From an uncultured Gammaproteobacteria bacterium (GTDB lineage Bacteria; Patescibacteriota; Microgenomatia; UBA8517), in assembly GCA_964617045.1 (NCBI GenBank), contig CAZTVZ010000002.1:12095-76094 (forward strand): a DNA stretch of 64,000 nt, in the 5' to 3' direction. The notes under the pieces are model-generated. The model had not been told where the DNA came from, did not search any database, and saw only the letters and a program-made list of their open reading frames with translations. Every line of letters starts with the position of its first letter. The first letter of the stretch is position 1. Positions 6,775 through 64,000 of the stretch are shown piece after piece. The position numbers and the translations under genes were made by a program.

Positions 6775-6845
6775 CTGCGGGTCAGGGATTCGAACCCCAA
6801 TAGGCAGATCCAGAATCTGCAGTCCTACCGTTAGACGAACCCGCA
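6775..6845 (-). tRNA. tRNA-Gln (anticodon CUG)
   Basis: Cloverleaf folded by hand: acceptor TGCGGGT/ACCCGCA with U1:A72 and G73 (bacterial Gln identity), D-arm GTCT-AACGGTA-GGAC, anticodon stem GCAGA/TCTGC, loop TTCTGGA, T-arm TGGGG-TTCGAAT-CCCTG. No encoded CCA. Confidence 0.75.
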
Positions 6846-41980: not shown

Positions 41981-42675
41981 TGGGTTTTTGGGATTCCCGG
42001 ACTCTTGTGCCCTCTATTACTTCCTGGAATGTTGATTGGAGAAAATGGGTAAAGGATGCAGACGAACTTGGTATTAAATCATTGGCAATCTTTCTTACCG
42101 GGATAGACAAATCGGAAAGACCCGAGCTTTATAAACTTCTTGATGAGAGCAATGTAGAAAATATTCCTTTTGTTCACCTCAAAAGCGACATGGATTTGTG
42201 GGAGTTGGATTACTTTGTGGAAAAGTGGGGAACCAAGGCTTTCAATATTCACACTGAGAAAGAATATAGACAGGAAAACGATATATCCAAATACAAGAAT
42301 ATAATCTATGTCGAAAATGTTCATTTGAAACTTGACGAAGAAGAGGTGAAAAGATGGGGAGGCTTGTGTATAGATGTAAATCATATCGAAGAAGCAAAAT
42401 ACATCTATAAAGATATCCATGAACATAACCTTGAGGTAATGAAGAAATACAAAGTCGGTTGTAATCATTTATCACCCCTCAAGGCTGATATTGCTACCGA
42501 TCTGGAATTCAAAAATACTCACCTTGTCGAAAACCTGTCGGAATTTGATTATCTGGACAATTATGAATCGAGATTCTTCGGGCCAATAATGGCTTTGGAG
42601 GTACGCAACCCCTTGAAGGAACAATTACCCATGTTGAAATACGTAGTAGAATTACTTGATGGCAAAGAAAAGTAA
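41980..42675 (+). CDS. hypothetical protein (231 aa)
   Basis: ORF with ATGA-type overlaps to neighbours; no recognisable motif. Confidence 0.4.
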   Translation: MGFWDSRTLVPSITSWNVDWRKWVKDADELGIKSLAIFLTGIDKSERPELYKLLDESNVENIPFVHLKSDMDLWELDYFVEKWGTKAFNIHTEKEYRQENDISKYKNIIYVENVHLKLDEEEVKRWGGLCIDVNHIEEAKYIYKDIHEHNLEVMKKYKVGCNHLSPLKADIATDLEFKNTHLVENLSEFDYLDNYESRFFGPIMALEVRNPLKEQLPMLKYVVELLDGKEK

Positions 42676-43270
42676 AATCAACTGGACCAAAACACTTGGC
42701 CTTATCGGAGACATTCTCATATTAATCGGACTTGTTGCCATAGTCCTTACCTTCAGGGAAGCCGCACAAAAAGAAGTAAGCTATACGGTTCGAAAAACAT
42801 TCAATATTCCTTATAAGGAAAAAGATCTAACTCCGGGGAATAAAGACTTTTGGATTGTAATTCCCAAAATTGGTGCTTCATCAAGGGTAATTGCCGACGT
42901 TAGTCCTTCAAACGAGGAAGAATATTTGAGTGCCCTAAGAAGGGGAGTTGCTCACGCTAAAGGTTCGACTTATCCGGGAGATTTTGGTAATACATATATC
43001 TTTGCCCACTCAACGGATACTTTTTATAATGTAGGACAATACAATGCTGTTTTCTTTTTACTCGGCAAGTTGAATAAAGGAGACAATATAGAAATTTACT
43101 ATAAGGAGAAGAAATATGATTATATTGTTAATGAAGTTAAGGTTGTTGACGCTGCCGATGTTAAATACCTCGGCAAGCTTGGAGAATGGAATACTTTAAC
43201 CTTGCAAACATGTTATCCTCCGGGAACCACATTAAAACGTCTTGTAGTAGTTGCTGATCAAAAGATTTGA
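42656..43270 (+). CDS. sortase (transpeptidase)
   Basis: N-terminal TM. Catalytic His region YIFAHST and TLxTC motif LTLQTCYP. Confidence 0.8.
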   Translation: MMAKKSKINWTKTLGLIGDILILIGLVAIVLTFREAAQKEVSYTVRKTFNIPYKEKDLTPGNKDFWIVIPKIGASSRVIADVSPSNEEEYLSALRRGVAHAKGSTYPGDFGNTYIFAHSTDTFYNVGQYNAVFFLLGKLNKGDNIEIYYKEKKYDYIVNEVKVVDAADVKYLGKLGEWNTLTLQTCYPPGTTLKRLVVVADQKI

Positions 43271-43316
43271 CAACACCTATAACCGGGTGTATAACATCAA
43301 AGTACCTAAAGAAAAG

Positions 43317-48447: not shown

Positions 48448-49398
48448 ATGAAATTTGCCCATAAAATTGCCCATCTTTTTTGGCCGAGAGAATCAAACAA
48501 TCACAAAGCCAAGTTGCTTCATAATTCTAGCCTTGCTGTTATTGCAGTATGTTTAATAATATTTCAGGGAATACTTACTTATCTTCCACGTATCGCCCCC
48601 GATGTTCTTGGATATGCATCAAATATCTCACCAGAAGAAGTAATAAGGCTTACCAATGAAAAAAGAGCTCAGAATGGACTTTCTCCGTTGACTGCCAATG
48701 CGACATTGTCACAGGCGGCTCAGGCAAAAGGATTGCATATGTTGGAACACGATTATTGGGCCCATTTTTCTCCTGATGGCGTAAGCCCTTGGACATTTTT
48801 TGCCAATTTTGGTTACAGCTATAAATATGCCGGAGAAAATCTTGCTCGTGATTTCCGGGATCCTTCCTCCGCTGTAGAAGCTTGGATGAATTCGCAAGCC
48901 CACAAAGACAATATGCTTTCTCCAAAGTATAAAGAAATAGGTATAGCGGTTGTGGAAGGTGACTTGGCCGGAGTCGATACTACTATAATAGTACAGTTTT
49001 TCGGAACTCAGGCTGCCGACACAATTCCCGTTCAGCCTATTGCCCAAATCACACCGGTGGTCACGGTAGCTCCCGAGATATCACCTATAATTAGTGTGGA
49101 AACACCGACACCCACTCAAGCTGAAGCACCGACGTTAACTGTTACACCCACACCTTCATTTATCGAGATATCCCCGTCTCCTCAGGTGCAGGCAAAAGTC
49201 TTGGTATCACCGTTTAATGCATCAAAAACTTTATCCATTGCTATTGTGGCAATATTATTGGGCGTTCTCGTTATTGACGGTGTCGTGACTTCAAGAAAAA
49301 GAATTGCCAGAATTGGAGGAAGAACTTTTGCACATGTATCTTTCCTGGGAATGATTTTGGTGATAATAATTATACTTAGAGCGGGGAGGGTAATATGA
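48448..49398 (+). CDS. CAP/SCP/PR1-like domain protein (YkwD-like) with C-terminal TM
   Basis: CAP motifs (NEKRAQNGLSPL, HDYWAHFSP, GENLAR, HKDNMLSPKYKEIGIA). Confidence 0.75.
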   Translation: MKFAHKIAHLFWPRESNNHKAKLLHNSSLAVIAVCLIIFQGILTYLPRIAPDVLGYASNISPEEVIRLTNEKRAQNGLSPLTANATLSQAAQAKGLHMLEHDYWAHFSPDGVSPWTFFANFGYSYKYAGENLARDFRDPSSAVEAWMNSQAHKDNMLSPKYKEIGIAVVEGDLAGVDTTIIVQFFGTQAADTIPVQPIAQITPVVTVAPEISPIISVETPTPTQAEAPTLTVTPTPSFIEISPSPQVQAKVLVSPFNASKTLSIAIVAILLGVLVIDGVVTSRKRIARIGGRTFAHVSFLGMILVIIIILRAGRVI

Positions 49399-50267: not shown

Positions 50268-50984
50268 ATGAAAGGCGTTGTCTTAGCAGGCGGTTTAGGA
50301 TCAAGGTTATACCCTTTAACTTACGCTACCAATAAACATTTACTCCCCGTTTACGATCAGCCTATGGTATATTATCCGATCCAGACATTGGTAGGTGCAG
50401 GAATTCACGAAATAATGGTTGTTACCGGTGGTCCTCATGCAGGAGATTTTATAAATGTTTTGAAAAACGGAGATAAATTTGGAGTTTCTCATTTGGAATA
50501 TGCATTCCAAGAAGGTGAAGGAGGAATTGCAGATGCGCTTAGATTGGCAAAAAGTTTTTCGGATGGTGAACCGATTTGTGTTATTTTAGGAGACAATTGT
50601 ACGGATGCCGACATATCCGAATCTGTGCAGAACTTCAAATCGGGTGCAACAATATTCTTAAAAGAAGTTCCAGATCCTCAAAGATTCGGATGTCCCGAAA
50701 TGGACGACAAGGGTAATATTATAAACATAATAGAGAAACCCAAGAATCCTCCAACAAATTATGCTGTAACCGGATTATATTTTTACGACAAGGATGTTTT
50801 TGACAAGATTGAATCAATTAAGCCTTCAGACAGAGGAGAGCTAGAAATTACGGACATAAACAATTTATATCTCAAAGAAGGAAAGCTTAATTGGAGTTTG
50901 TTGAAAGGGTACTGGCGTGATGCCGGTACATTTGCTACACTATTCGAGGCCAATAAGTATTGGGCAGATAAGAAGGAGGCGTAA
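50268..50984 (+). CDS. rfbA: glucose-1-phosphate thymidylyl/nucleotidyl-transferase (short RmlA-like)
   Basis: MKGVVLAGGLGSRLYPLTYATNKHLLPVYDQPMVYYPIQTL signature. Confidence 0.8.
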   Translation: MKGVVLAGGLGSRLYPLTYATNKHLLPVYDQPMVYYPIQTLVGAGIHEIMVVTGGPHAGDFINVLKNGDKFGVSHLEYAFQEGEGGIADALRLAKSFSDGEPICVILGDNCTDADISESVQNFKSGATIFLKEVPDPQRFGCPEMDDKGNIINIIEKPKNPPTNYAVTGLYFYDKDVFDKIESIKPSDRGELEITDINNLYLKEGKLNWSLLKGYWRDAGTFATLFEANKYWADKKEA

Positions 50985-50994
50985 GAGAAACGAA

Positions 50995-52011
50995 ATGAAT
51001 TTATTAGTATGTGGAGGTGCCGGTTTTATAGGATCGAACTTTATTAGAGTGTTTCTTGAAGAACACCCTCAGGATAAGGTTGTCAATTTGGATAAATTAA
51101 CCTATGCCGGCAATTTGGAAAACTTGAAGGATGTTGAAAACAATCCAAATTATAAATTTGTTCAAGGAGATATCACCGACCTCGAGAGATTAAATGAAGT
51201 AATCAAAGAAAACTCAATCACCCATATTATTAATTTTGCGGCAGAGACACACGTTGATAGGTCAATTCATGGTGGATGTAAAGATTTTGTCTTAACAAAC
51301 ACATTGGGAGTGCAAATGATTCTCGATGCAGCCAAATTTAACAACATCGAAAAAATGGTTAACGTATCAACAGACGAAGTATATGGCGCACTTGAACTGG
51401 ACGAAGACAGAAAATTCACTGAAAAAACTCCCATTTGGCCAAATATGCCCTATGCAGCAGCAAAAGCAGGCGGAGATTTAATGTGTAATGCCTATTGGGT
51501 AACACACAAAGTTCCTGTAATTGTCACACACTGTTCAAATAATTATGGACCTTATCAATATCCGGAAAAATTAATTCCATTCTTTATTTTTAAAGCAATG
51601 GCTGGAGAAAAGTTGCCGGTGTACGGGGACGGATTGAATGTGCGTGATTGGATTTATGTAACAGATCATGCAAAAGCCTTAATTCTTCTTTTGGAGAAAG
51701 GTGTTCCCGGTGAGGTATATAATATTGGTTCTGATAATGAAAGAAATAATTTGGAAGTAACCAAAATGATACTTAAACATCTTGGTAAGCCTGAAGATGC
51801 ATTTGAGTATGTACAAGATAGACCTGGCCACGACAGAAGATATGCAATTGACGCTTCTAAGATAATGGCTTTAGGATGGAAACCGGAATATCCTCTTGAG
51901 AAATTTGAAGAAGGGTTAAGGAAGACCATTGATTGGTATTTGGAAAACAAAGACTGGGTTGACCATTTGAGAGAAAAAGCCAAAGAAGCAAACGCCCATA
52001 TTAAAAAATAA
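50995..52011 (+). CDS. rfbB: dTDP-glucose 4,6-dehydratase
   Basis: GGAGFIGSN Rossmann, catalytic YAAAKAGGD (YxxxK), STDEVYG. ATG at 50995; ORF-track start 50917 overlaps rfbA. Confidence 0.9.
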   Translation: MNLLVCGGAGFIGSNFIRVFLEEHPQDKVVNLDKLTYAGNLENLKDVENNPNYKFVQGDITDLERLNEVIKENSITHIINFAAETHVDRSIHGGCKDFVLTNTLGVQMILDAAKFNNIEKMVNVSTDEVYGALELDEDRKFTEKTPIWPNMPYAAAKAGGDLMCNAYWVTHKVPVIVTHCSNNYGPYQYPEKLIPFFIFKAMAGEKLPVYGDGLNVRDWIYVTDHAKALILLLEKGVPGEVYNIGSDNERNNLEVTKMILKHLGKPEDAFEYVQDRPGHDRRYAIDASKIMALGWKPEYPLEKFEEGLRKTIDWYLENKDWVDHLREKAKEANAHIKK

Positions 52012-52433
52012 TGGCACCAAAATTTAATCCAATTGATGTTCAGGTTGCTGATGCTCCGAATTTCACCATGAACGTTCTCGAAATTGTAAAGAAAATTCCC
52101 GAAGGGACATCTTTTGAAGTAAAACGTTTGTATTGGTTAACAAATGTTAAAAACGAAAAGATGTCCGGGAAACATGCACACACCGATGAAGATGAAATAT
52201 TTGTAGTCTTGCAGGGCAGTGCAGAATTAACCTTGGATGACGGAACGGGGGAAGAACAGGTAATGATGAACACTGGCCAAATGATATGGGTTCCTAGGTT
52301 GATTTGGCACGGATTTACCAAACTATCCGACGATTCGATAGTGCTTGCGTTATCAAGCACTCTTTACGATCCAGATAGAAAAGGCTATGTGAACGATAAA
52401 GAACAATTTATCCAATTAGCAACGAACAAATGA
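52011..52433 (+). CDS. FdtA/QdtA-like dTDP-4-keto-6-deoxyhexose 3,4-ketoisomerase (WxcM C-terminal-like cupin)
   Basis: About 140-aa cupin. Pattern KRLYWL...GKHAHTDEDEIFVVLQGS...LDDG...VWHGF...DSIVLALSS parallels FdtA (RVYYIFD...RGFHAHKKLEQVLVCLNGS...LDDG...VWHEM...DCVMMVLAS) as recalled from memory. Confidence 0.7.
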   Translation: MAPKFNPIDVQVADAPNFTMNVLEIVKKIPEGTSFEVKRLYWLTNVKNEKMSGKHAHTDEDEIFVVLQGSAELTLDDGTGEEQVMMNTGQMIWVPRLIWHGFTKLSDDSIVLALSSTLYDPDRKGYVNDKEQFIQLATNK

Positions 52434-53344
52434 GTGAAAGACTTCTTGTAACAGGTGCATCCGGTTTGGTGGGATCGAGATTCGTAGAACTGAAATCTCC
52501 TGATTGTGAAGTGTTGCCTACGGACATTAATACTTTCGATATTACGGATCGTGCCTCAGTGGAAAAATTTATTTTGGAAAATAAACCAACAGCGATAATC
52601 CATTTTGCCGGATATACGGATGTAGAAGGGGCTGAAAAAGAAAGAGGGCAAGAATCCGGCCCTGCATGGGAAGTAAACGTTTTAGGAACCAGAAATATTG
52701 CAGAAACGGCAGCAAAAAATGGGGTGTACATGATTCATATTTCGACCGATTTTGTGTTCAAAGGATCCGAGGATGATAAAGGACCCCATTCGGAAGATAA
52801 ACCTTTACCCGCCGACAATAATGGAATCGGTTGGTATGGCTGGACCAAAAAATTAGCCGAAGACGAGGTTCGGAAAGCCCATCCCAATGCATCCATTGCC
52901 AGGATAAGTTATCCGTTTAGAGCAAATTTTGAAGGTAAAAAAGATTTTGCCAGAAGTATTCTTTCTTTGTACGAAGGGGGAACACTATATCCTCTTTTCT
53001 CCGACCAATATCTAACACCGGCATTTATCGACGATATCGCCAAAGCATTAAATATATTGGTCAATAAAAAATTGCCCGGCACATTTCATCTGGTTTGTAC
53101 GGGAGTGACAACACCATTTGAATTTGGGAATTATCTATTGGAGAAAGCAAAAGGAGTAAAAGATGCTGTAAAACCTGGTTCTCTGAAAGAATTTATGAGT
53201 GTTCCGGGAAGGACGCCAAAACCTATGTATGGGGGACTTTTAAATGAAAAAACAGAAAGTATTTTGGGAATGAAATTTTTAACGTGGAAAGAAGCAATTG
53301 ACGAGCTCGTAAGGCAAATTAACTCTTCAAAAGATCAGGCCTAA
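52430..53344 (+). CDS. RmlD-like NAD(P)H-dependent dTDP-ketosugar reductase
   Basis: VTGASGLVGS Rossmann. RmlD substrate-binding-type SDR with YGWTKKLAE (YxxxK). Confidence 0.7.
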   Translation: MSERLLVTGASGLVGSRFVELKSPDCEVLPTDINTFDITDRASVEKFILENKPTAIIHFAGYTDVEGAEKERGQESGPAWEVNVLGTRNIAETAAKNGVYMIHISTDFVFKGSEDDKGPHSEDKPLPADNNGIGWYGWTKKLAEDEVRKAHPNASIARISYPFRANFEGKKDFARSILSLYEGGTLYPLFSDQYLTPAFIDDIAKALNILVNKKLPGTFHLVCTGVTTPFEFGNYLLEKAKGVKDAVKPGSLKEFMSVPGRTPKPMYGGLLNEKTESILGMKFLTWKEAIDELVRQINSSKDQA

Positions 53345-54020: not shown

Positions 54021-55175
54021 GTGAAAACAATGAATAAAGTCGTAATAATAATGCCCACCTATAACGAGAAGGGTAATATTACAAAAATGATCGATACCCT
54101 CTTCAAAGAGGAATTCCCCAAGATATCCGAAGCTGAAATGCATCTTCTTGTAGTTGACGATAATTCTCCTGATGGAACCGGGGAAGTTGTTAAAGAAAAA
54201 ATGAAATCGCATAAAAACCTGCATCTTTTAACCGGAGAAAAACAGGGTTTGGGTTGGGCTTACATTAGAGGTATGAAACATGCAATGAAAGAATTGTCAG
54301 CCGATGCCGTAATGGAAATGGATGCGGATTTCCAGCATCCTCCGCGATTTGTCAAACCAATGGTTGAAGCTTATCTGAATGGAGCTGACTATTGTATTGG
54401 AAGCAGATATATTAAAGGTGGTTCGGTACCCAAAGAATGGGCGTTTTCCAGAAAGGCTATCTCATTTTTGGGAAATCTTTTTATAAGACTGGTTCTTCTT
54501 AAACCAGGGCTTCACGATTTGACGACAGGTTTTAGATTAACAAAAGTTGAGGGGGTACTCGATAAAATTGAACTCGATAACCTTATGGAACCGAAAAGAT
54601 TTGCTTACAAGGTTGATCTTCTTTATCAGAGTATCAAAAATTCCAAGAAAGTAGTTGAGGTTCCGCTCGAATTTGCTCCAAGACTTGAAGAGGCATCAAA
54701 GTTTAATCCCAAAGAAATGATATCTACTTTCAAAGTTGCGATTATTTTGGGGATTAAAGACAAGATGAAAATAATTAAATTCGGTACGGTTGGTTTTATT
54801 GGATTCATGGTTAATTTTATTTTAATCAGAGTTTTCAGGTCGTTTGGGTTACCGGAGATGGTTGTTTGGTTTTTGGCAACAGAGGCTGCAATAGTAAACA
54901 ATTTTGTGTTCAATAATATATGGACTTTTAAGGAAGCTCAGATATCGGGAATTGGTAAATGGTTGCAGAAGTTTTTGCAGTTCAATCTTACTTCCGCCGG
55001 AGCATTGGCAATTCAAACCGTTTTCGGATCTTTGGGGGTAAAATGGTTTGGAGCACAATATGACTGGTTAATACTCGCAGTAGTGGTTGTCTTTATGGTC
55101 CTTCCTTACAATTACACGATGTACAATCTTGTTATTTGGAAGACTTGGAAAAACCCTTTTTCTAAAAAAAAGTAA
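54021..55175 (+). CDS. GT2 polyprenyl-phosphate glycosyltransferase (Dpm1/GtrB-like) fused to GtrA-like membrane domain
   Basis: GT2 motifs (IIMPTYNE, VVDDNSPDGT, DADFQHPP). C-terminal 4-TM GtrA-like region. Confidence 0.8.
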   Translation: MKTMNKVVIIMPTYNEKGNITKMIDTLFKEEFPKISEAEMHLLVVDDNSPDGTGEVVKEKMKSHKNLHLLTGEKQGLGWAYIRGMKHAMKELSADAVMEMDADFQHPPRFVKPMVEAYLNGADYCIGSRYIKGGSVPKEWAFSRKAISFLGNLFIRLVLLKPGLHDLTTGFRLTKVEGVLDKIELDNLMEPKRFAYKVDLLYQSIKNSKKVVEVPLEFAPRLEEASKFNPKEMISTFKVAIILGIKDKMKIIKFGTVGFIGFMVNFILIRVFRSFGLPEMVVWFLATEAAIVNNFVFNNIWTFKEAQISGIGKWLQKFLQFNLTSAGALAIQTVFGSLGVKWFGAQYDWLILAVVVVFMVLPYNYTMYNLVIWKTWKNPFSKKK

Positions 55176-55219
55176 TCTGAGAGCTTTTGAGAGAACTGCC
55201 TTTGCTATAATATTCCGAA

Positions 55220-56092
55220 ATGGCCGAAAAATTGACTAACCCCGAGCAGAGGGAAAGAGACTTCAATAAAATGCTCGTTGCCGAATATTTGAAATACGGT
55301 TCTGTCGACGAAGTCTATCGAAGACACGATTACAATCTCCCCATATCTTATCCCGGATATCAGAGACTTTTGGACAGATGGGGGATAGTCAAATCAGCCG
55401 GTCCAAACAGTACTCTTTCGGAAGCTATTACTTTCATGACAATGCTTTCGGATCACAAAATGCCCCTGGAAACTGTTTACAGGAAACTACCCCCGAGCTT
55501 TAAAACATCTATGGCAACCATGCATAGAATTCTTCACAACATTAAAGAGGGTGCAACAAGAAGGTTTGGAACCGCAGTTGTTGTTACAAGAGAGGGTGAA
55601 GATGAAAAAATGCTTGTCGGAGAAGATATTTCAACTCCGAGATTGGAATACGGAAAACCTTATGGCTCAGTGTCTTTACCTATGACATTTTCAAAGATGA
55701 GTGAAACTCCCAAGGAATCGGTAAAAAGAGTATTGCAGCAGGAAGTGTTTACAAAAGAAACAATTGAAAATGTATTTCCGGAAAATATTATCCCAAACGA
55801 TATTAAACCATTTATGTATTTTGACATTGCCGACATCAATGTCGCCGTATTTCATTTGGTATTGCCTAAGAAAACGTTAGTTAAGAATTTTAGTAGTTTC
55901 AAATTGCACGACTATCGTTTTGCCGATATTTCAGAATTTATGGGAAGTGAAAGAAAAGCGCATGTCAGATCAGGTATGAGAGATATCGCAGAAGGGTACA
56001 AAAAATTTATTGAAGGCTCAACTGTAGAGGCGAAAGTATCAAATCTTAACGTGAGGTTGTCTCAATTGGCTCCGGAATACTTACATTATTAG
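55220..56092 (+). CDS. hypothetical protein (290 aa)
   Basis: ORF only. Confidence 0.4.
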   Translation: MAEKLTNPEQRERDFNKMLVAEYLKYGSVDEVYRRHDYNLPISYPGYQRLLDRWGIVKSAGPNSTLSEAITFMTMLSDHKMPLETVYRKLPPSFKTSMATMHRILHNIKEGATRRFGTAVVVTREGEDEKMLVGEDISTPRLEYGKPYGSVSLPMTFSKMSETPKESVKRVLQQEVFTKETIENVFPENIIPNDIKPFMYFDIADINVAVFHLVLPKKTLVKNFSSFKLHDYRFADISEFMGSERKAHVRSGMRDIAEGYKKFIEGSTVEAKVSNLNVRLSQLAPEYLHY

Positions 56093-56264
56093 ATTTGTTT
56101 TCAAAAATTACTCCATGTTGTTCTGCTAATTCCACAACGTTCACAGGTTTGGTTACGGTTCGAATATCCGCTTTGCAATTCTCGCATATACCTCTTGGAG
56201 GAAGGGAGATCTCTCCACATCCGTTACAAACACTACCTTCCAGGCGAAGAAGCGAATGTTTCAT
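56046..56264 (-). CDS. small zinc-ribbon protein
   Basis: CNGCGE...CENCK four-Cys ribbon. Convergent with and overlapping the previous gene's 3' end. Confidence 0.4.
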   Translation of the reverse strand: MKHSLLRLEGSVCNGCGEISLPPRGICENCKADIRTVTKPVNVVELAEQHGVIFENKSNNVSIPEPIETTSR

Positions 56265-56384
56265 TCTCCAAAATCTAGGAACTTCCATCTTAAATGAGAT
56301 TATAAGCGGTTAAATCTATCAAACACTATCAACTTGGTGTATGCACTTGTGGAAGAATAGCTTCAAATTTGCTAGACTTCAGAT

Positions 56385-57095
56385 ATGGCTAAGTACCTAA
56401 TAGATAAACTGTCGGTTTTCTTTCCCGCCTACAACGAAGAAATTAATATAAGAAGTACCGTTACAAAAGCCGTAAACGTTTTGAATAAAACCGCTAAAAC
56501 TTGGGAAATTATTATTGTTAACGACGGATCGAAAGACAAGACGGGTGAAATATCAGACTCTATGGCCAAAAAAGACAAGAGAATAAGGGTAATTCACCAC
56601 AACCCCAACAGGGGGTACGGAGCAGCCTTAAAAAGCGGTTTATATGGTTCCAGATATCCTTGGATTGTGTTTACAGACTCTGACGGACAGTTTGATTTTG
56701 CTCAACTTCCAAACTTTATTAACACACAAAAAGAAACAGGAGCAGATCTTGTAATCGGATACTATCTTGAAAGAAAAGTACCCTTCAACAGGAAACTAAA
56801 TACTTTTTTGTGGCAAACGGTTGTAAATATTCTTTTTGGACTACATGTAAAAGATATTGATTGCGGATTTAAATTAATCAGTAAAAAGGTGTTGGACAAG
56901 ATTCCAAAACTTGAATCCGAAAGAGGAGCTTTTATTTCCAGCGAGTTTTTAATAAAGGCCAAAAAGATGAAATTTAAGATTGTGGAAATTGGCGCAAAAC
57001 ATTTTCCGGCCAAAAAACCGGGTACGGGTGCCCATCTGAATGTAATAATCAAAAGCTTCATTGATCTTTTCAGATTATGGAAAAAATTAAGGTAA
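56385..57095 (+). CDS. GT2 polyprenyl-phosphate glycosyltransferase (Dpm1/ArnC-like)
   Basis: LSVFFPAYNEE, IIVNDGSKDKT, TDSDGQFD motifs. Confidence 0.85.
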   Translation: MAKYLIDKLSVFFPAYNEEINIRSTVTKAVNVLNKTAKTWEIIIVNDGSKDKTGEISDSMAKKDKRIRVIHHNPNRGYGAALKSGLYGSRYPWIVFTDSDGQFDFAQLPNFINTQKETGADLVIGYYLERKVPFNRKLNTFLWQTVVNILFGLHVKDIDCGFKLISKKVLDKIPKLESERGAFISSEFLIKAKKMKFKIVEIGAKHFPAKKPGTGAHLNVIIKSFIDLFRLWKKLR

Positions 57096-58588
57096 AGATT
57101 AGGGGTTTTTTAAAAAACAACACAAAAGAAATAATCGTCGTTGGTATTATTCTTCTTTTGGCTGCATTCTTGAGGTTATATCGTATTTCCGAATATATGC
57201 AATTTATGGGCGACGAAGGCAGGGATATGATTGTTGTCAGAAATCTCCTTGTAAACAAAGACCTTATCCTTATAGGGCCGGGCACATCGGTGGGCAATAT
57301 GTACTTGGGGCCATTATACTATTATCTTATTGCACCGGCACTTCTTCTGTTCGATTTTGAACCGGTTGGGCCGGCAATAATGGTTGCGCTATTGGGGGTT
57401 GGAACTGTGCTTTTAACATACTTACTTACCAAAAAGTGGTTTGGTATTAGAGCTGGTGTTATTGCGGCTTTTTTCAGTGCAATATCGTATCTCTTTATCA
57501 AATACTCGATATTTTCCTGGAATCCGAACGTTCTTCCTTTTTTCTCGATTCTTTCGGTGTTTCTGCTAAGTGAAATAAAAGAAAAGAAAAGTTGGCTGAT
57601 TATTCCATCGCTTGCTTCTTTTGCTTTTGTTCTGCAGTCCCATTACATGGGGATATTTTTATTTCCGGTTCTTCTGACTATATGGATTTATAAACTCAAA
57701 AACGACAAAGCTGTTAAAAGATACCTTGTAAATACTTTATTGGGGGTATTGTTGTTCTTACTCTTGATGTCACCGCTTCTTATTTTCGACCTGAGACACG
57801 GAATGATGAATTACAACGCGCTTATGGTTTATCTTAATGGGCTTGGAGGTTCCAGGACTTATTCAACGGTTACTTTATTCGATAGGGTTTTATCCAATTT
57901 TCGGTTTATGGTCGGAGAAGTTGTTGGTTCAAAGTTTGACACAATTATTACCGGCGGTTATTCGTTCCTCCTTGTGATAGGAATGATTTACCTTTCTTTC
58001 TATCACAAAAACAAATACGCAGTGTTGACGACAATAATTTGGTTTGTTATTGCGGTGTTGGGGCTAACTATCTACGGTGGAAGAATAATATCCCACTACT
58101 ATGGTTATGCCTTTGCAGTTATTCCGATAATCGTAGGTGCTGTTGTGGGCGATTTAATGAAAAGAAAATATTTGGGTATTATCTTCGCTTTTCTTCTAAT
58201 GTCCCCGGTTATTTATTTTGCTGTGATTAATTCCAATTTAAATTGGAAACCAAATCGGCTCGTACAAAAAGCCGAAGCGGTTGCGGATAAAATAATTGAG
58301 GAATCCGAAGGAAAAGAGTTAAACCTTGCGGTATTGTCCAATTTTAATTATGAAGATGGATACCAATATTTTGTTGAGAAGAAAGGATACGTTGCAAAAG
58401 ACATTGATCCTTCGAAATTCAACGAGACTGTAACGGATCAGCTGTTTGTTGTTTGTGAGCTGGAGGAAGAAAATTGCAAACCTACAAGCAATCCCAATAC
58501 TCAAATTGCCAATTTCGGCTGGAGTAAAATTGTCGGTAAATGGCAAATTGAAAACGTTATTTTATATAAATTAACCCATATACAATGA
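57077..58588 (+). CDS. GT-C fold membrane glycosyltransferase (ArnT/PMT-like), paralog 1
   Basis: About 11-13 TM. First-loop acidic motif MGDEGRD and conserved LIGPGTSVGNMYLGPLYYYL shared with paralogs 2-3. Confidence 0.65.
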   Translation: MEKIKVKIRGFLKNNTKEIIVVGIILLLAAFLRLYRISEYMQFMGDEGRDMIVVRNLLVNKDLILIGPGTSVGNMYLGPLYYYLIAPALLLFDFEPVGPAIMVALLGVGTVLLTYLLTKKWFGIRAGVIAAFFSAISYLFIKYSIFSWNPNVLPFFSILSVFLLSEIKEKKSWLIIPSLASFAFVLQSHYMGIFLFPVLLTIWIYKLKNDKAVKRYLVNTLLGVLLFLLLMSPLLIFDLRHGMMNYNALMVYLNGLGGSRTYSTVTLFDRVLSNFRFMVGEVVGSKFDTIITGGYSFLLVIGMIYLSFYHKNKYAVLTTIIWFVIAVLGLTIYGGRIISHYYGYAFAVIPIIVGAVVGDLMKRKYLGIIFAFLLMSPVIYFAVINSNLNWKPNRLVQKAEAVADKIIEESEGKELNLAVLSNFNYEDGYQYFVEKKGYVAKDIDPSKFNETVTDQLFVVCELEEENCKPTSNPNTQIANFGWSKIVGKWQIENVILYKLTHIQ

Positions 58589-60063
58589 AAAAACTGTTTA
58601 CACCGCTTAATATGCTTCTTTTTTCTATTTTGGTTATTGCTCTGGTTTTAAGGATTAATCACACGGAAAGAATTCTCGGTTTTTGGTATGACCAAGGAAG
58701 AGATGCTCAAGTAGTTTGGGATTTTATACACAAAGGAAAGTTTTTCTTGATTGGACCTACAACCGGTATTGAAGGTATTTTTAGAGGCCCCTGGTACTAT
58801 TGGCTAATTACACCCTTTTATTTTTTGTCCAAAGGAAACCCTGTTCTTCCGGCAATGTTTCTTGCCTCAACAACCGTTTTGGGAATATATTTTCTTTATA
58901 AAATCGGTGAAAGATTGGGAGGAGTAAAAACAGGGATATTTGCATCGGTACTTGCCACGTTGTCTTTCTACCTTGTTTCGGCATCAAGATGGTTAAGTAA
59001 TCCCACACCGATGTTCCTCATCAGCACTTTAACGGTTTGGTTTTTGCTAAGGTTTATTGACGGGAAGAAGTTTTCTCTTATTTGGGTGGGTCTATTAACG
59101 GGACTTGCAATTCAGTTCGGTTCGGCAGCTGAGGTTTTTTATATCCCTTCAATTTTTATTCTTTTACTTATTTACAAAAAGAAAATTAAAAATATTGGCA
59201 AATTGATACTACCGGCGATGATGTTTGTTCTCATTTTTATTCCACAGCTGTGGTTCAATTTCCGACACGATGGTGTATTTTTGGCGGCATTAAATAAATT
59301 TTTGGTTGAAGAGCAAAGTTTTAAATTATCTTTTTGGCAAATGATACAGGTAAGATTTCCTTTTTATCTCGACATGATTTCCTCAAAATTCTGGTTAAAC
59401 GATGTTAAGGCGTTTACTCCGTTTGTCGGTGCCGTAATTGCGGCAATGATTATGTATTGGAAAGAAATGTGGAAGAAAGACGAATTTAAGATTATTTTTA
59501 TTTTTACACTGACACCTTTTTTGGGAATGCTGTTTTTCCAAGGAAACCACGGAAATGTATATGAATATTATTTTTCGGGTTACTTTTATCTTTGGATTCT
59601 CCTTTTTGCTTATTGTTTGATAATGCTTGCGAGAAGTTTTGTCGGAAAGATTGTATTAATTGTTTTTATGGGGATATTCCTTTTCAAAAACATTCCTTTG
59701 TCTTATGGAATGGCTTTTAGAATGGGAGATGATGGAACCTCCGCAATATACTTGAGCAATCAAAAAAAGATAATCGATTGGATATACGATGATGCTACAG
59801 ATCAACCTTTTAATATCGATGTTTATGTTCCCCCTGTAATACCGCATGCATACAACTATCTCTTTGAATGGTATGGTGGGACTGTTAAGGAGAGACAGCC
59901 GAATAAAGAATTGGTGGATACTTTGTACACGATATATGAACTTGATATTCCCCATCCCGAAAGACTTGATGTTTGGTTAAAACGTCAGGATACGATAGGC
60001 AAGGTTGTTGACGAATACAGATATGGAGGAATAACCGTACAAAAAAGGATTAGAATCCAATGA
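58585..60063 (+). CDS. GT-C fold membrane glycosyltransferase, paralog 2
   Basis: YDQGRD and LIGPTTGIEGIFRGPWYYWL; ATGA overlap with paralog 1. Confidence 0.65.
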   Translation: MKKLFTPLNMLLFSILVIALVLRINHTERILGFWYDQGRDAQVVWDFIHKGKFFLIGPTTGIEGIFRGPWYYWLITPFYFLSKGNPVLPAMFLASTTVLGIYFLYKIGERLGGVKTGIFASVLATLSFYLVSASRWLSNPTPMFLISTLTVWFLLRFIDGKKFSLIWVGLLTGLAIQFGSAAEVFYIPSIFILLLIYKKKIKNIGKLILPAMMFVLIFIPQLWFNFRHDGVFLAALNKFLVEEQSFKLSFWQMIQVRFPFYLDMISSKFWLNDVKAFTPFVGAVIAAMIMYWKEMWKKDEFKIIFIFTLTPFLGMLFFQGNHGNVYEYYFSGYFYLWILLFAYCLIMLARSFVGKIVLIVFMGIFLFKNIPLSYGMAFRMGDDGTSAIYLSNQKKIIDWIYDDATDQPFNIDVYVPPVIPHAYNYLFEWYGGTVKERQPNKELVDTLYTIYELDIPHPERLDVWLKRQDTIGKVVDEYRYGGITVQKRIRIQ

Positions 60064-61541
60064 TTAATAAAATACTTAAAAGCCCGCTGTTTTATTTGAT
60101 CTTGATAGTTATCATTGCAACAGGATTGAGATTGTTCAGACTTTCCGATTATTTTTACTATGCACACGATAACGATTTGGCCGCATGGATGGTGAAGGAC
60201 ATTGTAAAAAATGGACACCTTAGATTAATCGGACAGGAGACCTCAACGGCAGGAATATTTATTGGTCCATTTTTTTACTATCTTATGATTCCGTTCTTTT
60301 TACTTACTAATCTCGATCCGATTGGAATTACTTATTCTGGAATTATTCTTGGTATCGTAACGACACTCAGTTTCTTTTATGTATTTTACTCAACTCACAA
60401 CAAAAAAGTTGCTTTTATTGCAACCATTATCTATGCAACATCGCAATATTTGGTTTTCAACGACAAGGAGATTGTTCCTACGATGTTTGTTTATCTTTGG
60501 ACTGTTTGGTATTACTTCGCTATAAAAAAGCTATTGGATGGAAAAAAGATTGGTTATATTGTTTCGGGTATACTAATCAGTTTTATTTGGCATATAAATT
60601 TTGCTCTTGTGCTTCTTCTTCCTTTAATCCCCGTTGCAATCCTAATGTCAGGAAAGAAATTGAATTATAGATATATTCTTTATGGATTATTGGCAATTAT
60701 TCCCATGTCCATTCCGTTATTACTGTTTGAATTTAGACATGGATTCATGCAGATAAACGCTTTAATTACCTCGCTTACAACAACTCAAAGCCAAGTATTC
60801 ACGCTTTCGGAAAGATTCAATAGAGTATTGGAGTTATCCGGGAAAAACTTAAAAAGCCTTCTTCTCCCGGGAATATTCGAAGGGGCAAGTATGTATGCAA
60901 CGATAGTTGGGGTTATAGTACTTTTCCTGGCAATATATAAAAAAATAATGGATAAAAAAACCGGAATATTAATTTTCTCCTGGATACTTTTATATATGCT
61001 TTTCTTTACTTTTTATTCAAAGATATTATCTGAATATTATTTAAACGGAATGATTGTTGCCTGGATTGTTGTTTTTTCTATTCTTATCGGAAGACTTTTT
61101 GAAATGAATAACAAGACAAAAATTTTGGGTGCTCTTTTAATGTTTATGGTTGTTGAATCAAACTTGGAGGCAATATATTTGATGCCAATAAATAAAAGCG
61201 GATATTTACACAGAAAAGAAATTGTCAGATTAATAGACGAGGACAGGCAAAAACAGGATTATCCTTGTGTATCGGTTTCTTATATCACTGAGGTCGGCAA
61301 TGATTTGGGATATCGATTCTTTTTTTATCTGAGAGATATGCATGTCGGTAAACCGGCCGGTGGTGCACCCGTTTATTCAATTGTTTATCCTTTATCAATG
61401 GTAGACAAAGTAGACTTGGAGGTCGGTGCTTTGGGTCTCATTTATCCTGACTATAAAAAATACAGTAAAGCCGAAATCGAAAAAGTGTGTTCAGGTGAAA
61501 ATCCCAACTTATTTGAGCCGATGTTCGGGTATACTGAATAG
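60060..61541 (+). CDS. GT-C fold membrane glycosyltransferase, paralog 3
   Basis: HDNDLAAW and LIGQETSTAGIFIGPFFYYL; overlap with paralog 2. Confidence 0.65.
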   Translation: MINKILKSPLFYLILIVIIATGLRLFRLSDYFYYAHDNDLAAWMVKDIVKNGHLRLIGQETSTAGIFIGPFFYYLMIPFFLLTNLDPIGITYSGIILGIVTTLSFFYVFYSTHNKKVAFIATIIYATSQYLVFNDKEIVPTMFVYLWTVWYYFAIKKLLDGKKIGYIVSGILISFIWHINFALVLLLPLIPVAILMSGKKLNYRYILYGLLAIIPMSIPLLLFEFRHGFMQINALITSLTTTQSQVFTLSERFNRVLELSGKNLKSLLLPGIFEGASMYATIVGVIVLFLAIYKKIMDKKTGILIFSWILLYMLFFTFYSKILSEYYLNGMIVAWIVVFSILIGRLFEMNNKTKILGALLMFMVVESNLEAIYLMPINKSGYLHRKEIVRLIDEDRQKQDYPCVSVSYITEVGNDLGYRFFFYLRDMHVGKPAGGAPVYSIVYPLSMVDKVDLEVGALGLIYPDYKKYSKAEIEKVCSGENPNLFEPMFGYTE

Positions 61542-61545
61542 ACAT

Positions 61546-62298
61546 ATGTTTTTAACCGTAATTATTCCTTGTTATAACGAATCAGCCAATCTGAAAAGAG
61601 GGGTTTTGAGAGATGTTTATAAATATCTCTCCGGAAAGATGTTTTCTTGGGAGGTACTTGTTTCGGACGACGGATCGACCGACGACAGCAAGGATGTAAT
61701 CAAAAAAGAAATTGCAAAACTGCGAGGTTTTAAACTTCTTGAAAATCCACACGGAGGAAAACCGTCGGCCCTTCTCTATGGAATCCGTGCTGCGAAAGGG
61801 GATTATATATTGTTTACAGACATGGACCAATCAACACCAATCACGGAATTGGAAAAGTTAATTCCTTTTGTTAAAGATAACGATGTGGTAATCGGTTCGA
61901 GAGGAATGAAGAGGGAAAATTTTCCTCTTTACAGAAAAATGGGTGCGGCGGTGTTTATGAGCATCAGAAGAGCTCTTATTCTTCCCGAAATAAAAGATAC
62001 GCAATGCGGATTTAAATTGTTTGAAGCAAATGCTCTTAAAAAAGCATTTCCAAAGTTGGAGTTTTTTCAAAAGAATGAAAAAGTTGTCGGATGGAAGGTT
62101 ACTTCGTTTGATGTCGAATTATTGCAAATCTTGAAAATGATGCGCAAGAAAATAAAAGAAATTACCGTTACCTGGATCGACGAAGACACAAGTAGTAGTA
62201 AAGGTGGAGGATTATCGAGATATGTTAAAGAATCCAAAGAAATGCTTTTACAAATATTGAGGGTAAAAATTAACGAACTCCGCGGCGTATACAAATGA
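61546..62298 (+). CDS. GT2 polyprenyl-phosphate glycosyltransferase (Dpm1-like)
   Basis: VIIPCYNESANL, LVSDDGSTDDS, TDMDQST. ATG at 61546 preferred over ORF-track start 61426, which lies inside the upstream gene. Confidence 0.8.
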   Translation: MFLTVIIPCYNESANLKRGVLRDVYKYLSGKMFSWEVLVSDDGSTDDSKDVIKKEIAKLRGFKLLENPHGGKPSALLYGIRAAKGDYILFTDMDQSTPITELEKLIPFVKDNDVVIGSRGMKRENFPLYRKMGAAVFMSIRRALILPEIKDTQCGFKLFEANALKKAFPKLEFFQKNEKVVGWKVTSFDVELLQILKMMRKKIKEITVTWIDEDTSSSKGGGLSRYVKESKEMLLQILRVKINELRGVYK

Positions 62299-63818
62299 AA
62301 CAATTTTTGAAAGACAAAAAGGCAATGCTTATTCTTGGTGTTTTGTTAGTGTTGGGAATTATTTTCAGGTTTGTAAATTTGACACAGGTTCCGGTATTTG
62401 CCGATGAAGCGATATATTTAAGATGGGCTCAAATAATGAGAGCCGAAGAGACATTGAGATTTCTTCCGCTTTCCGATGGAAAACAACCCCTCTATATGTG
62501 GACAGTCATTCCCTTTTTTAAATTTATTTCCGATCCTCTTGTTGCAGGAAGAATTCTTTCTATTCTTACGGGGCTTGCAACGGGAATTTTTATATATCTT
62601 TCTTCCCGTCTTCTTTTTGAAAACAAAAAAGTTGCAATATTAGCATTTGCCATTTCGATGTTGTCACCATTTTTAATATTCTTCAACAAACTTGCTCTTG
62701 TTGATTCAATGCTAGCAATGTTTGGGGTAATGACTTTTTTCTTTACTTTACTTACGGCAAAAACAAGAAGGAATGATTGGGCGATAGTTGCAGGTGCATG
62801 TTTAGGTGCCGCATATCTCACCAAATCACCGGCATTGTTTTTTGCTTTAGGAATCCCTTTTTCTCTTCTTCTGTTTTCTTATAAAGGAAAAGGGTTTAAG
62901 GGAATATTAAATGCAATATTTTTGATTGCCTTGATTGAAATAATCGGTTACGCAATTAGTAATATATTAAGACTTGGCCCAAATTTTCATTTAATCAAAA
63001 TGAGAAATATGGATTATGTTTATCCGATTAACCACATACTCGAAAGTCCGTTTTCTCCTTTTGTTTCTCATTTTAAAGCATCATTCGAATATCTATGGAT
63101 AATGGGACCGTCTGCGTTATTAGGTTTATTCTTTTTGGGGATCTTCACAAATCTCAGAAAATATTGGAGGGAAATAATCTTCACTTTGGCATTTATTGCA
63201 ATTCCACTTATAGCCAACAGTGAATATGCAAAGGTATATACGGCAAGATATATGTTGTACATGGTGCCTTTTATCGCCCTATTGGCGGGAAATGCAATCG
63301 ACTATAAAAACAAAGTATTAAATGTGGTAGTAAATATTTTGATTATTTTATTTATTGGTCATAGTATGTTTATCAATTTGGAAACAATATATGCTGTCGA
63401 AAAAGTGAATCTTCCGAGGGGAGAAAGATCTGGTTATTTTGAAGAATGGACTGCCGGATACGGGATTAAAGAAATATCGGAATTTCTTAAAGAAGAACGT
63501 AAGGATAATCCAAATAAAAAGATAGTAGTCGGAACTGAAGGATATTTTGGAACCCTACCCGACGGACTTCAAATGTATATGAGTGATACTCCTGAAGTAA
63601 TCGTAATCGGTGTCGGATTAGGGATTGATAGAATTCCGAATCCTCTTTTAGAATCATTCAAAAGTGGAAATAGTACTTATCTTGTTGTTAATAATTCCAG
63701 ATTGTTGGGTAACCCGGAGAAGATGGGAATGGAAATTGTGGCGGCTTATCCAAAACAAGTCAGACCTGACGGATCAAGAGAGTCATTGTATCTGCTTAAA
63801 GTGAAAGGAATTAGATAA
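62295..63818 (+). CDS. GT-C fold membrane glycosyltransferase (ArnT/PMT_2-like, DE motif), paralog 4
   Basis: VFADEAIYLRWAQ first-loop motif typical of ArnT/GT39/GT83. Multi-TM. Confidence 0.7.
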   Translation: MKQFLKDKKAMLILGVLLVLGIIFRFVNLTQVPVFADEAIYLRWAQIMRAEETLRFLPLSDGKQPLYMWTVIPFFKFISDPLVAGRILSILTGLATGIFIYLSSRLLFENKKVAILAFAISMLSPFLIFFNKLALVDSMLAMFGVMTFFFTLLTAKTRRNDWAIVAGACLGAAYLTKSPALFFALGIPFSLLLFSYKGKGFKGILNAIFLIALIEIIGYAISNILRLGPNFHLIKMRNMDYVYPINHILESPFSPFVSHFKASFEYLWIMGPSALLGLFFLGIFTNLRKYWREIIFTLAFIAIPLIANSEYAKVYTARYMLYMVPFIALLAGNAIDYKNKVLNVVVNILIILFIGHSMFINLETIYAVEKVNLPRGERSGYFEEWTAGYGIKEISEFLKEERKDNPNKKIVVGTEGYFGTLPDGLQMYMSDTPEVIVIGVGLGIDRIPNPLLESFKSGNSTYLVVNNSRLLGNPEKMGMEIVAAYPKQVRPDGSRESLYLLKVKGIR

Positions 63819-64000
63819 TGGCTAATGCTCCCGGGGATAACCTGGATCCTACCGACGAGATTAATTTATCAACCGTTAAAGAAAGGGCGGTCAAAGGTGT
63901 TGTTGTCTTAACCGGTAGAACATTTTTTCTTAGTATTATTTCGCTTGTTGCCACCGGTCTTCTTACAGTATTTTTGGATCCTAGCGAATTCGGTATTTTT
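63818..64000 (+). CDS. polysaccharide/oligosaccharide flippase-like membrane protein (Wzx/MOP-type), 3'-partial
   Basis: N-terminus followed by first TM helices; runs off the window end. Assignment from position and TM pattern only. Confidence 0.4.
   Translation, partial: MANAPGDNLDPTDEINLSTVKERAVKGVVVLTGRTFFLSIISLVATGLLTVFLDPSEFGIF

Follow-up and report, generated by a model that had tools for sequence, protein, structure and literature searches.

Positions 54021 to 64000 of the window, the 64,000-nucleotide stretch of contig CAZTVZ010000002.1 (assembly GCA_964617045.1) analysed here, which comes from an ultrasmall bacterium of the Microgenomates/Woesebacteria type, are likely to encode a multi-component transmembrane glycosylation cluster that uses lipid-linked single sugars. 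Nine co-directional genes lie there on the plus strand, namely three glycosyltransferases of family 2 (GT2a, GT2b and GT2c), four membrane transferases of the GT-C type (GTC1 to GTC4), a conserved gene of no assigned family (hyp290) and the 5' end of a Wzx-type gene, and every long open reading frame (ORF) of this part is on the plus strand. The parts of a three-component system as defined previously (PMC8035078, PMC11127046), a lipid-phosphate sugar synthase, a GT-C and a flippase candidate, are thus adjacent and co-directional, and their order is kept in relatives. The genes are as follows.

GT2a: 54021..55175, plus strand, 384 amino acids (aa); PF00535 and PF04138; predicted polyprenyl-phosphate sugar synthase of the dolichyl-phosphate mannose synthase (DPMS) type
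hyp290: 55220..56092, plus strand, 290 aa; conserved soluble protein, no family match; optional member
GT2b: 56385..57095, plus strand, 236 aa; PF00535; predicted polyprenyl-phosphate sugar synthase, no transmembrane (TM) helices
GTC1: 57077..58588, plus strand, 503 aa; PMT_2; GT-C fold in the model; first-loop motif GDEGRD
GTC2: 58585..60063, plus strand, 492 aa; PMT_2; first-loop motif YDQGRDA
GTC3: 60060..61541, plus strand, 493 aa; homology to GTC1 and GTC2; first-loop motif HDxDL; optional member
GT2c: 61546..62298, plus strand, 250 aa; PF00535; predicted GT2 of the polyprenyl-phosphate type, no TM helices
GTC4: 62295..63818, plus strand, 507 aa; PMT and PMT_2; DE motif of the PMT/ArnT type
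Wzx-type gene, first 61 codons: 63818..64000, plus strand; PF01943/PF13440 relative; candidate flippase; cut off by the window edge

From GT2b (56385) to the end of the window, neighbouring genes overlap by 1 to 19 nt or sit 4 nt apart, which is the layout expected of co-translated genes. GT2b and GTC1 overlap by 19 nt, the GTC1/GTC2, GTC2/GTC3 and GT2c/GTC4 junctions are 4-nt overlaps of the form ATGA, GTC4 and the Wzx-type gene share 1 nt in TAATG, and the one gap, of 4 nt, separates GTC3 from GT2c. These junctions agree with the translational coupling of the GT-C array that had been claimed from the letters and a list of ORFs (hereafter the sequence-only reading). A scan for promoters and terminators between 53300 and 64000 gave counts at or under the shuffled expectation and was uninformative on the limits of the operon. 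The ATG at 61546 was preferred as the start of GT2c because its orthologues are 245-249 aa long; a GTG at 61426, which would give a protein of 290 aa overlapping GTC3 by 116 nt, was dropped. The gene at the window end had been read as Wzx-like, and its 61 codons indeed match, at 74% identity (E 1e-23), the beginning of a protein that occupies the same syntenic position in a related locus (L003:17674-19158), is 494 aa long and carries PF01943 and PF13440.

The array is a lineage-wide conserved cluster and no peculiarity of this genome. More than 3300 homologues of GTC1 were found in a database clustered at 90%, from Woesebacteria/Patescibacteria and under the source names 'GT39' or 'ArnT family'; among 1.84 billion proteins they formed 1116 representative clusters at E <= 1e-30, and a scan of one genome per species gave a GTC1 relative in at least 508 genomes, the named ones being Woesebacteria, Collierbacteria, Microgenomates or 'Patescibacteria group'. 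With the window proteins as references, ORFs were typed in the 80 best loci. In these loci, which belong to Woesebacteria, Collierbacteria and other Microgenomates, the gene order is conserved and reads [RmlA RmlB RmlC/D] - TrmD (opposite strand) - GT2a - (hyp290) - GT2b - GTC1 - GTC2 - (GTC3) - GT2c - GTC4 - Wzx. It is shared by dozens of distantly related genomes, in which GTC1 is about 41% identical to the window copy, so that the comparison of genomes suggested by the sequence-only reading came out in favour of the array, with an order recurring across Woesebacteria and Collierbacteria. Presence was counted in the 50 loci that had 10 kb on both sides.

GTC1: 50/50 loci
GT2c: 49/50 loci
GT2b: 47/50 loci
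GT2a: 46/50 loci
GTC4: 46/50 loci
GTC2: 44/50 loci
GTC3: 25/50 loci
core of GT2b, GTC1, GT2c and GTC4: 43/50 loci
all seven genes: 20/50 loci

The Wzx-type gene directly follows GTC4 in 28 of the 50 loci, and GT2b and GTC1 overlap or abut (gap <=10 nt) in 45 of 47, with a median overlap of 19 nt. A minimal form, GT2a-GT2b-GTC1-GT2c-GTC4-Wzx, was found in Collierbacteria (L081 and L084). Identity to orthologues is about 60% for GT2a and GT2b and 40-45% for the GT-Cs, and this better conservation of the synthases would suit invariant donors and evolving acceptor sites. Many contigs carrying the cluster (L009, L011-L013, L015, L017 and others) are titled 'uncultured Gammaproteobacteria', and single records (P0111, L055, L070) are labelled Hodarchaeales archaeon, Alphaproteobacteria or Bdellovibrionales; these labels are probably placeholder names or mis-binned contigs and not true occurrences outside the Patescibacteria.

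Dpm1/ArnC-like GT2 enzymes had been proposed at 54021, 56385 and 61546, and all three proteins contain PF00535 (E 8.7e-27 for GT2a, 3.4e-31 for GT2b and 2.1e-27 for GT2c) and are relatives of DPMS, ArnC and GtrB. Each also has a metal motif of the DxD(x)Q type that goes with the GT-A fold and is defined by DADLQH in the DPMS of Pyrococcus furiosus (PfDPMS) and by DADLQD in GtrB (PMC5526996). Their predicted membership of the polyprenyl-phosphate class (DPMS/GtrB/ArnC) is strongly supported by homology and models.

GT2a aligns with PfDPMS (PDB 5mlz) over residues 6-367 (362 residues, E 3.7e-43), including both the catalytic and the four-helix membrane domain, and it is on average 61% identical to 57 orthologues. 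Its metal motif DADFQHPP matches 89-DADLQH-94 of PfDPMS, and with the 22-residue offset of the PDB chain corrected for, equivalents of R117, R131 and S135, the residues that hold dolichyl phosphate in the crystal structure (PMC5526996), are kept. Its hydrophobic segments fall in two regions, at about 251-275 and 343-372, consistent with the four-helix domain of the alignment. The GtrA-like fusion of the sequence-only reading was found in this protein as PF04138 (GtrA_DPMS_TM, E 2.9e-16), and is more precisely a DPMS membrane domain, which is dispensable for catalysis by PfDPMS and for which lipid flipping was not shown (PMC5526996). The product of GT2a is predicted to be, most likely, polyprenyl-phosphate mannose; as the host is a bacterium, this lipid would presumably be built on undecaprenyl phosphate or a different polyprenyl phosphate of bacteria.

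No TM helices were predicted for GT2b or GT2c. The three best structural matches of the GT2b model (predicted local distance difference test score (pLDDT) 90.5, built with 35 sequences) are solved polyprenyl-phosphate GT2 synthases, namely DPMS, ArnC and GtrB, and over the whole domain these rank ahead of all polymer-acting GT2s in both sequence and structure comparisons. Together with the full-length DPMS match of GT2a, this agrees with the specificity class on which the sequence-only reading had depended. Whole-domain matches of GT2b in NCBIfam were to Dol-P hexose transferase, ArnC, PpgS and AglJ, each well short of its equivalog cut-off, and those to PgaC, TuaG and similar enzymes covered the first ~100 residues only. 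Its metal motif is DSDGQF, and as to the lipid-phosphate site, the conserved basic residues R130, R136 and K137 could be placed nearby, but no more. The best PDB match of GT2c is PfDPMS (5mlz, E 1.3e-13), with the equivalents of R117 and R131 retained. A PfDPMS variant without its membrane domain is still membrane-bound and active (PMC5526996), and GacI is a known GT-A synthase without TM helices (PMC8035078), which makes GT2b and GT2c plausible as synthases.

The GT-C genes that had been proposed at 57077, 58585, 60060 and 62295 are present, each with support from Pfam, homology or a model. The profile searches outlined in the sequence-only reading, which gave PF00535 and PF04138 for the GT2s, gave PMT_2 for GTC1 (34.4 bits against a cut-off of 26.1) and, over the gathering score, PMT_2 for GTC2 (42.6 bits) and both PF02366 PMT (51.1 bits) and PF13231 PMT_2 (50.5 bits) for GTC4. 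GTC3 itself had no Pfam match, and PF13231 is present in most of its orthologues. In blastp comparisons, GTC1, GTC2 and GTC3 show 23-25% identity in alignments longer than 420 residues, with E from 1e-18 to 1e-23 (GTC2 and GTC1, 23% over 457 aa, E 9e-24; GTC3 and GTC1, E 4e-21; GTC3 and GTC2, E 2e-18), and the GTC1 and GTC3 families match in a profile-profile comparison with a probability of 100 and E 2.4e-39, GDEGRD being aligned with HDxDL. These three are old paralogues. The claim of four paralogous GT-Cs holds for them, and blastp barely detects GTC4 as a relative of the others (marginal matches, E 0.02-0.12).

Sequence searches against the PDB gave nothing useful for GTC1 or GTC4, and fold comparison was therefore used. 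The 21 best structural matches of the GTC1 model (pLDDT 88.6, predicted template modelling score (pTM) 0.90, built with 42 sequences) are all GT-C transferases; transporters, which had been named beforehand as an outcome that would refute the reading, are not among them. The closest are Pmt4, ALG12 and ArnT, with Pmt2 and STT3B further on, and mycobacterial GT-C structures also appear in the match list. Judged by their sequences, GTC1 to GTC4 are therefore families remote from the solved enzymes.

The strongest conservation across orthologues lies just past the first TM helix, where all four GT-Cs have an acidic motif; the catalytic acidic residues of GT-Cs sit in the first loop after this helix (PMC8035078, PMC11127046). 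The motifs are invariant or nearly so among 37-70 orthologues per GT-C. For GTC1, the conserved stretch is FLGDEGRD ... GPGTS.GNMYLGPLYYY, with GDEGRD invariant; YDQGRDA of GTC2 is conserved in 60 orthologues; GTC3 has HDNDL, and HDxDL is invariant in its family; and GTC4 has 'F.DEAIY.RW' and 'DGKQPL.MW' conserved in 60 orthologues. The classical DE motif attributed to GTC4 is accordingly present as FADEAIY and kept in at least 90% of these 60. The acidic 'DxGRD' loop ascribed to the first three paralogues is found in GTC1 (DEGRD) and GTC2 (DQGRD) and not in GTC3, and the longer motif said to be common to them is exact in GTC1 (LIGPGTSVGNMYLGPLYYYL), whereas GTC2 (LIGPTTGIEGIFRGPWYYWL) and GTC3 (LIGQETSTAGIFIGPFFYYL) deviate from it. 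The N-termini of all four GT-Cs are rich in Lys and Arg, so that by the positive-inside rule the first loop would be placed outside the cell. An invariant Cys pair in the C-terminal alpha/beta domain of GTC1 fits an extracytoplasmic location.

A search of the GTC1 family, covering its 150 best representatives, identified eight proteins in which a GT2b-type domain stands ahead of the GT-C domain, seven of them 708-741 aa long and one truncated; fusions thus occur in at least seven protein clusters (P0370, P0381, P0423, P0431, P0447, P0459, the degenerate P0393 and the truncated P0362). In seven of the eight, the GT2 domain shares 40-54% identity with the window GT2b (E 2e-34 to 6e-80), and in all eight the GT-C domain shares 31-40% with GTC1. 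Among the seven full-length fusions, five have the full DxDGQ, six DCGFK and all seven DEGRD; in the degenerate P0393 the GT2 part is just 24% identical and without the DxD motif. The fusion P0381 is found on eight contigs of independent samples, inside the same cluster (L085/L086 8001-10187), in a locus that comprises a CAP protein, RmlA-D, an epimerase, GT2a, a 386-aa protein on the opposite strand, the fusion, GT2c, GTC4, two PTPS_related proteins and Wzx. The overlap of the two genes and their fusion in relatives argue strongly, at the genomic level, for GT2b as the maker of the donor for GTC1. The layout of the fusions also fits a cytoplasmic GT2 domain followed by a first helix with its N-terminus inside. 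No described GT-A/GT-C fusion was found in the literature, the coverage of which was limited, so that this is weak evidence of novelty.

According to the mechanism proposed for this cluster, the three GT2s would load polyprenyl phosphate with a sugar taken from a nucleotide donor at the cytoplasmic face, a step strongly supported by homology and models, GT2a with its own four-helix membrane domain and GT2b and GT2c presumably seated at the membrane via amphipathic helices. The lipid-linked sugars would then be flipped outward, with the Wzx-type protein at 63818 as a candidate; flipping by a Wzx-type protein was proposed for GacK (PMC8035078). Finally, the four GT-Cs, whose fold and motifs are those of such transferases, would pass the sugar to acceptors outside the membrane. 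GT2b would feed GTC1 and probably GTC2 and GTC3 as well, the latter two using its product on other positions or acceptors, and GT2c would serve GTC4. With regard to the acceptor, we lean towards a wall-associated glycopolymer with 6-deoxyhexose from the neighbouring dTDP-sugar genes; Ser/Thr/Pro-rich surface proteins, and hence protein O-glycosylation, are our second choice.

The following genes of the window bear on the supply of sugar and on the candidate acceptors.

LTD-domain protein: 39116-39955, plus strand; Ser/Thr/Pro-rich linker (60% Ser/Thr in 30 residues) and C-terminal anchor
GalE: 40668-41684, upstream of the cluster
Sortase: 42656-43270, plus strand, followed by a 1410-aa surface protein (the pair spans 42656-47483)
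CAP-domain protein: 48448-49398, plus strand; Ser/Thr/Pro-rich linker ahead of a C-terminal membrane anchor
dTDP-6-deoxyhexose genes (RmlA-like, RmlB, FdtA-like cupin, RmlD-like): 50268..53344, plus strand; syntenic
RmlA-like nucleotidyltransferase: 50268-50984, plus strand; NCBIfam score under the cut-off
FdtA/WxcM-type cupin: 52011-52433, plus strand; PF05523, E 6.6e-24
RmlD-like reductase: 52430-53344, plus strand; NCBIfam score under the cut-off

The dTDP-sugar genes are a probable sugar supply for the cluster. RmlB passed the NCBIfam equivalog cut-off (455 against 365 bits). In relatives, the cupin position is occupied by RmlC (PF00908), whereas the window has the FdtA/WxcM type instead, and the genome may therefore make a dTDP-6-deoxyhexose other than L-rhamnose. 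TrmD lies upstream of the cluster in the window, on the opposite strand. Rml genes are upstream of the cluster in many relatives; in L085/L086 they directly adjoin GT2a and run in its direction, and this makes the connection with dTDP-sugars stronger. The 1410-aa protein, with SpaA, SdrD-B and DUF11 domains, has LPATG near its C-terminus, then a hydrophobic stretch and a tail of basic residues, and appears from its sequence to be a wall-anchored adhesin or pilin-like sortase substrate; together with the sortase, it points to a single-membrane, wall-anchoring envelope without lipid A. The LTD and CAP proteins are possible targets of O-glycosylation, and CAP-domain homologues precede the cluster in distant relatives too (L001, L085).

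The cluster also includes genes of less evident function. Between GT2a and GT2b, hyp290 is found in 22-24 of the 80 related loci; it has no predicted TM segment, its invariant residues include the motif RVLQQEVF, and it gave no Pfam, NCBIfam or PDB match, also when a 23-sequence profile was used. By our impression, this protein may have a degenerate Nudix-like box. On the minus strand of the window, at 56046-56288, there is an ORF of 80 aa whose zinc ribbon is of the ChsH2/DUF35 type (PF12172); it resembles a shortened copy of a 136-aa protein with a zinc ribbon and an OB-fold that 15 related loci carry in the same place. Relatives have additional genes, namely an eight-helix membrane protein of 385 aa on the opposite strand ahead of GT2b (69 loci, e.g. 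L074 940-2097, minus strand), a cytoplasmic DHH/DHHA1 phosphoesterase whose gene overlaps both the stop of GTC1 and the start of GTC2 (56 loci, e.g. L010 11443-12441), a PTPS_related GT-C-like protein ahead of Wzx (43 loci) and a 557-aa membrane protein past Wzx (21 loci).

Further extra cluster genes of relatives, examples: L012 7290-8999; L063 19622-21295

A tblastn search of the 64-kb window gave no DHH phosphoesterase and no 385-aa, 569-aa or 557-aa membrane protein. Farther from the cluster, a terminase large-subunit-like gene (PF17289, 1490-3004, plus strand), a large serine recombinase (3958-5337, plus strand) and a tRNA-Gln (6774-6845, minus strand) lie together and may be the remains or the edge of an integrated phage. 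A 1764-aa secreted protein encoded at 13893-19187 on the minus strand has Ig-like and fibronectin type III repeats and a domain similar to the N-terminal, lectin-like receptor-binding domain of clostridial neurotoxins.

Several observations count against a lipid-linked single-sugar cluster. The metal motif of GT2c is DMDQ, with the Gln one position earlier than in DxDxQ, and an Ala stands at the position of S135. As there is no sequence similarity to solved GT-Cs, the GT-C assignment of GTC1 to GTC3 rests on weak Pfam matches and the predicted fold; the 42-sequence profile of the GTC1 family retrieved only Pmt2 from the PDB (E 0.74). The flippase role of the Wzx-type protein is a guess, and no dedicated small GtrA flippase is present. 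Neither a priming transferase nor a rhamnosyltransferase, an ABC exporter or an LCP ligase was seen in the window, and this lack of genes for acceptor synthesis weakens the idea of a decorated rhamnan. Since the extra genes of relatives are missing from the window, the set is compact here and may be incomplete or reduced. The functions of the cluster members are predictions from sequences and models for an uncultured organism.

The same genes could be explained by GT-Cs that assemble a glycan on the outer side of the membrane, one polyprenyl-phosphate sugar after another, like mycobacterial PimE, MptA/B/C and Emb/Aft, the product being a lipoglycan or wall glycan and a core component of the Microgenomates envelope. 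Several non-redundant GT-C orthogroups have been together since before the split of Woesebacteria and Collierbacteria, the block of relatives holds still more GT-C-like genes (PTPS_related, extra PMT_2), genes for cytoplasmic polymer synthesis are missing from the cluster, and about 1% of genomes smaller than 1 Mb is devoted to it, all of which would suit such a pathway. It nevertheless appears unlikely, as GTC2 and GTC3 are dispensable in many genomes, down to the minimal form of L081 and L084, as the closest structural matches are enzymes of single transfers (Pmt4, ALG12, ArnT) and none of them polymerises, and as the C-terminal domain of GTC1 is small in the model and has no obvious carbohydrate-binding module. 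A bolder proposal is that one of the GT2s without TM helices makes a polyprenyl-phosphate rhamnose-type donor from the rml-type sugar, and that the GT-Cs, natural fusions included, assemble the main wall glycopolymer of the Microgenomates wholly outside the membrane. To our knowledge, a donor of this kind has not been characterised before, and we regard this proposal as a long shot; if true, it would represent a route to a rhamnose-type wall polymer unlike the cytoplasmic one of streptococci and a first handle on the envelope chemistry of uncultured Microgenomates.

Alternatively, GT2b and GT2c might be ordinary cytoplasmic GT2s that extend a repeat unit linked to undecaprenyl pyrophosphate, which Wzx would export, the large membrane proteins being of polymerase or ligase type. 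The Wzx-type gene at the cluster end and the adjoining nucleotide-sugar genes would be expected in that case, the GT2 family is very broad, and GT2b and GT2c also match PgaC, TuaG and chondroitin synthase over their N-terminal ~100 residues. However, the whole-domain matches of GT2b place DPMS, ArnC and GtrB ahead of the polymer-acting enzymes, GT2b is fused directly to GTC1 in relatives, the GTC1 fold is that of ArnT/PMT/STT3-type GT-Cs with no match to Wzy or WaaL, and a priming phosphoglycosyl transferase was seen neither in the window nor among those related loci that were annotated; this explanation is very improbable. The source annotations 'ArnT family' and '4-amino-4-deoxy-L-arabinose transferase-like', and the presence of ArnC and ArnT among the structural matches, might suggest instead a modification of membrane lipids by an ArnC/ArnT-like system, for instance a change of surface charge and resistance to cationic peptides. 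Yet these names are automatic family labels and not tests, ArnT is no closer to the GTC1 model than PMT, ALG12 or AglB, no ArnA/B/D-type genes are among the scanned ORFs of the 64-kb window, and the sortase with its LPATG protein indicates a wall-anchoring envelope of a single membrane. A lipid A modification of the ArnT type was rejected on the last two grounds, and the broader idea is hardly credible.

The mechanism proposed for the cluster, transfer of lipid-linked single sugars across the membrane, is textbook knowledge, and the logic of multi-component glycosylation has been reviewed (PMC8035078, PMC11127046). Its working is established for SccN/M and SccP/Q (PMC11754754), GacI/J/K/L and CsdA-F (PMC8035078), and GtrB/PgtC2 and Pgf (PMC12041528). 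The statement of the sequence-only reading that the arrangement is not a standard described operon was overstated, as S. mutans, L. lactis and S. pyogenes have GT-A/GT-C pairs. The rhamnan (SCC) locus of S. mutans, with its two pairs SccN/SccM and SccP/SccQ (PMC11754754), is the nearest worked example. In both loci, GT-A synthases predicted or known to make undecaprenyl-phosphate sugars lie side by side with GT-Cs and are linked to rhamnose or dTDP-sugar genes, a synthase is paired with its own GT-C, and the flippase is not identified with certainty. The window differs in having three synthases and four GT-Cs instead of two and two, with one synthase for three old paralogues, in GT-Cs of the PMT_2 type that have no detectable sequence similarity to solved enzymes, in a host from the Patescibacteria and in that genes for a rhamnan backbone were not seen nearby.

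In S. pyogenes, GacI/GacJ/GacK/GacL combine a GT-A without TM helices, a Wzx flippase and a GT-C next to polysaccharide genes that depend on dTDP-rhamnose (PMC8035078), and the window likewise has unanchored GT-As, a Wzx-type flippase candidate and GT-Cs beside dTDP-sugar genes. Unlike that system, it comprises multiple modules and no evident small partner resembling GacJ, to which the 385-aa opposite-strand membrane protein of relatives is unrelated. L. lactis has three GT-A/GT-C pairs, CsdAB, CsdCD and CsdEF, which share the flippase CflA and act on separate acceptors, namely rhamnan, pellicle and lipoteichoic acid (PMC8035078). Several pairs thus occur in one genome there too; they are dispersed and use a small GtrA-type flippase, whereas the window modules are concatenated in an operon-like block.

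Protein O-glycosylation by a GT2 and a GT-C is known from Ppm1/Pmt O-mannosylation in Actinobacteria and from the DPMS/PMT systems of eukaryotes and archaea. The DPMS-like GT2a, the PMT-type DE motif and PF02366 of GTC4, and the Ser/Thr/Pro-rich proteins in the window are reminiscent of these systems; unlike in them, GTC4 is genetically coupled to GT2c and not to the DPMS-like GT2a, and the cluster is known from its genes alone. Streptococci have GtrB/PgtC2 and the Pgf operon, with two GT-Cs in one operon, where a synthase and a GT-C glycosylate Ser/Thr-rich extracytoplasmic regions (PMC12041528); PgtC2 and PgfM are GT-Cs of the YfhO family, whereas those of the window are PMT_2. GT2a itself resembles PfDPMS (5mlz) in its GT-A domain, interface region, four TM helices, DAD(L/F)QH motif and Arg/Arg/Ser site (PMC5526996), and differs in its bacterial host and in a donor specificity that is predicted by sequence. 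The window set is also comparable to that of mycobacteria, although it is clustered and its GT-Cs belong to different families. Many mycobacterial GT-C paralogues (PimE, MptA-C, Emb, Aft) draw on few lipid-phosphate sugar donors; these enzymes come from other GT-C families, are for the most part dispersed over the genome and are known to polymerise. PpgS/Rv3779 is a short GT2 without TM helices, like GT2b.

Particular to the present cluster would be the number of modules in one block, one synthase serving ancient GT-C paralogues with a DPMS-type enzyme alongside, the synthase-transferase fusions of relatives and the conservation across a class of ultrasmall bacteria. No paper describing this cluster was found, which is weak evidence as literature coverage was incomplete. 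The GT2b::GTC1 fusions provide unusually direct genomic evidence of which synthase supplies which GT-C, and they could be compact model proteins for the handover of lipid-linked sugars across the membrane. The envelope chemistry of Patescibacteria (the CPR, or candidate phyla radiation) is essentially unknown, and glycans go unmentioned in a recent perspective on these bacteria, while their surface is central to their biology because the cells live attached to others. About 10 kb in genomes smaller than 1 Mb, the kept gene order and the frequent dTDP-sugar neighbours make the cluster a strong candidate for a core surface-glycan pathway. It supplies concrete enzymes for study, and its value is that of a lead rather than of a surprise.

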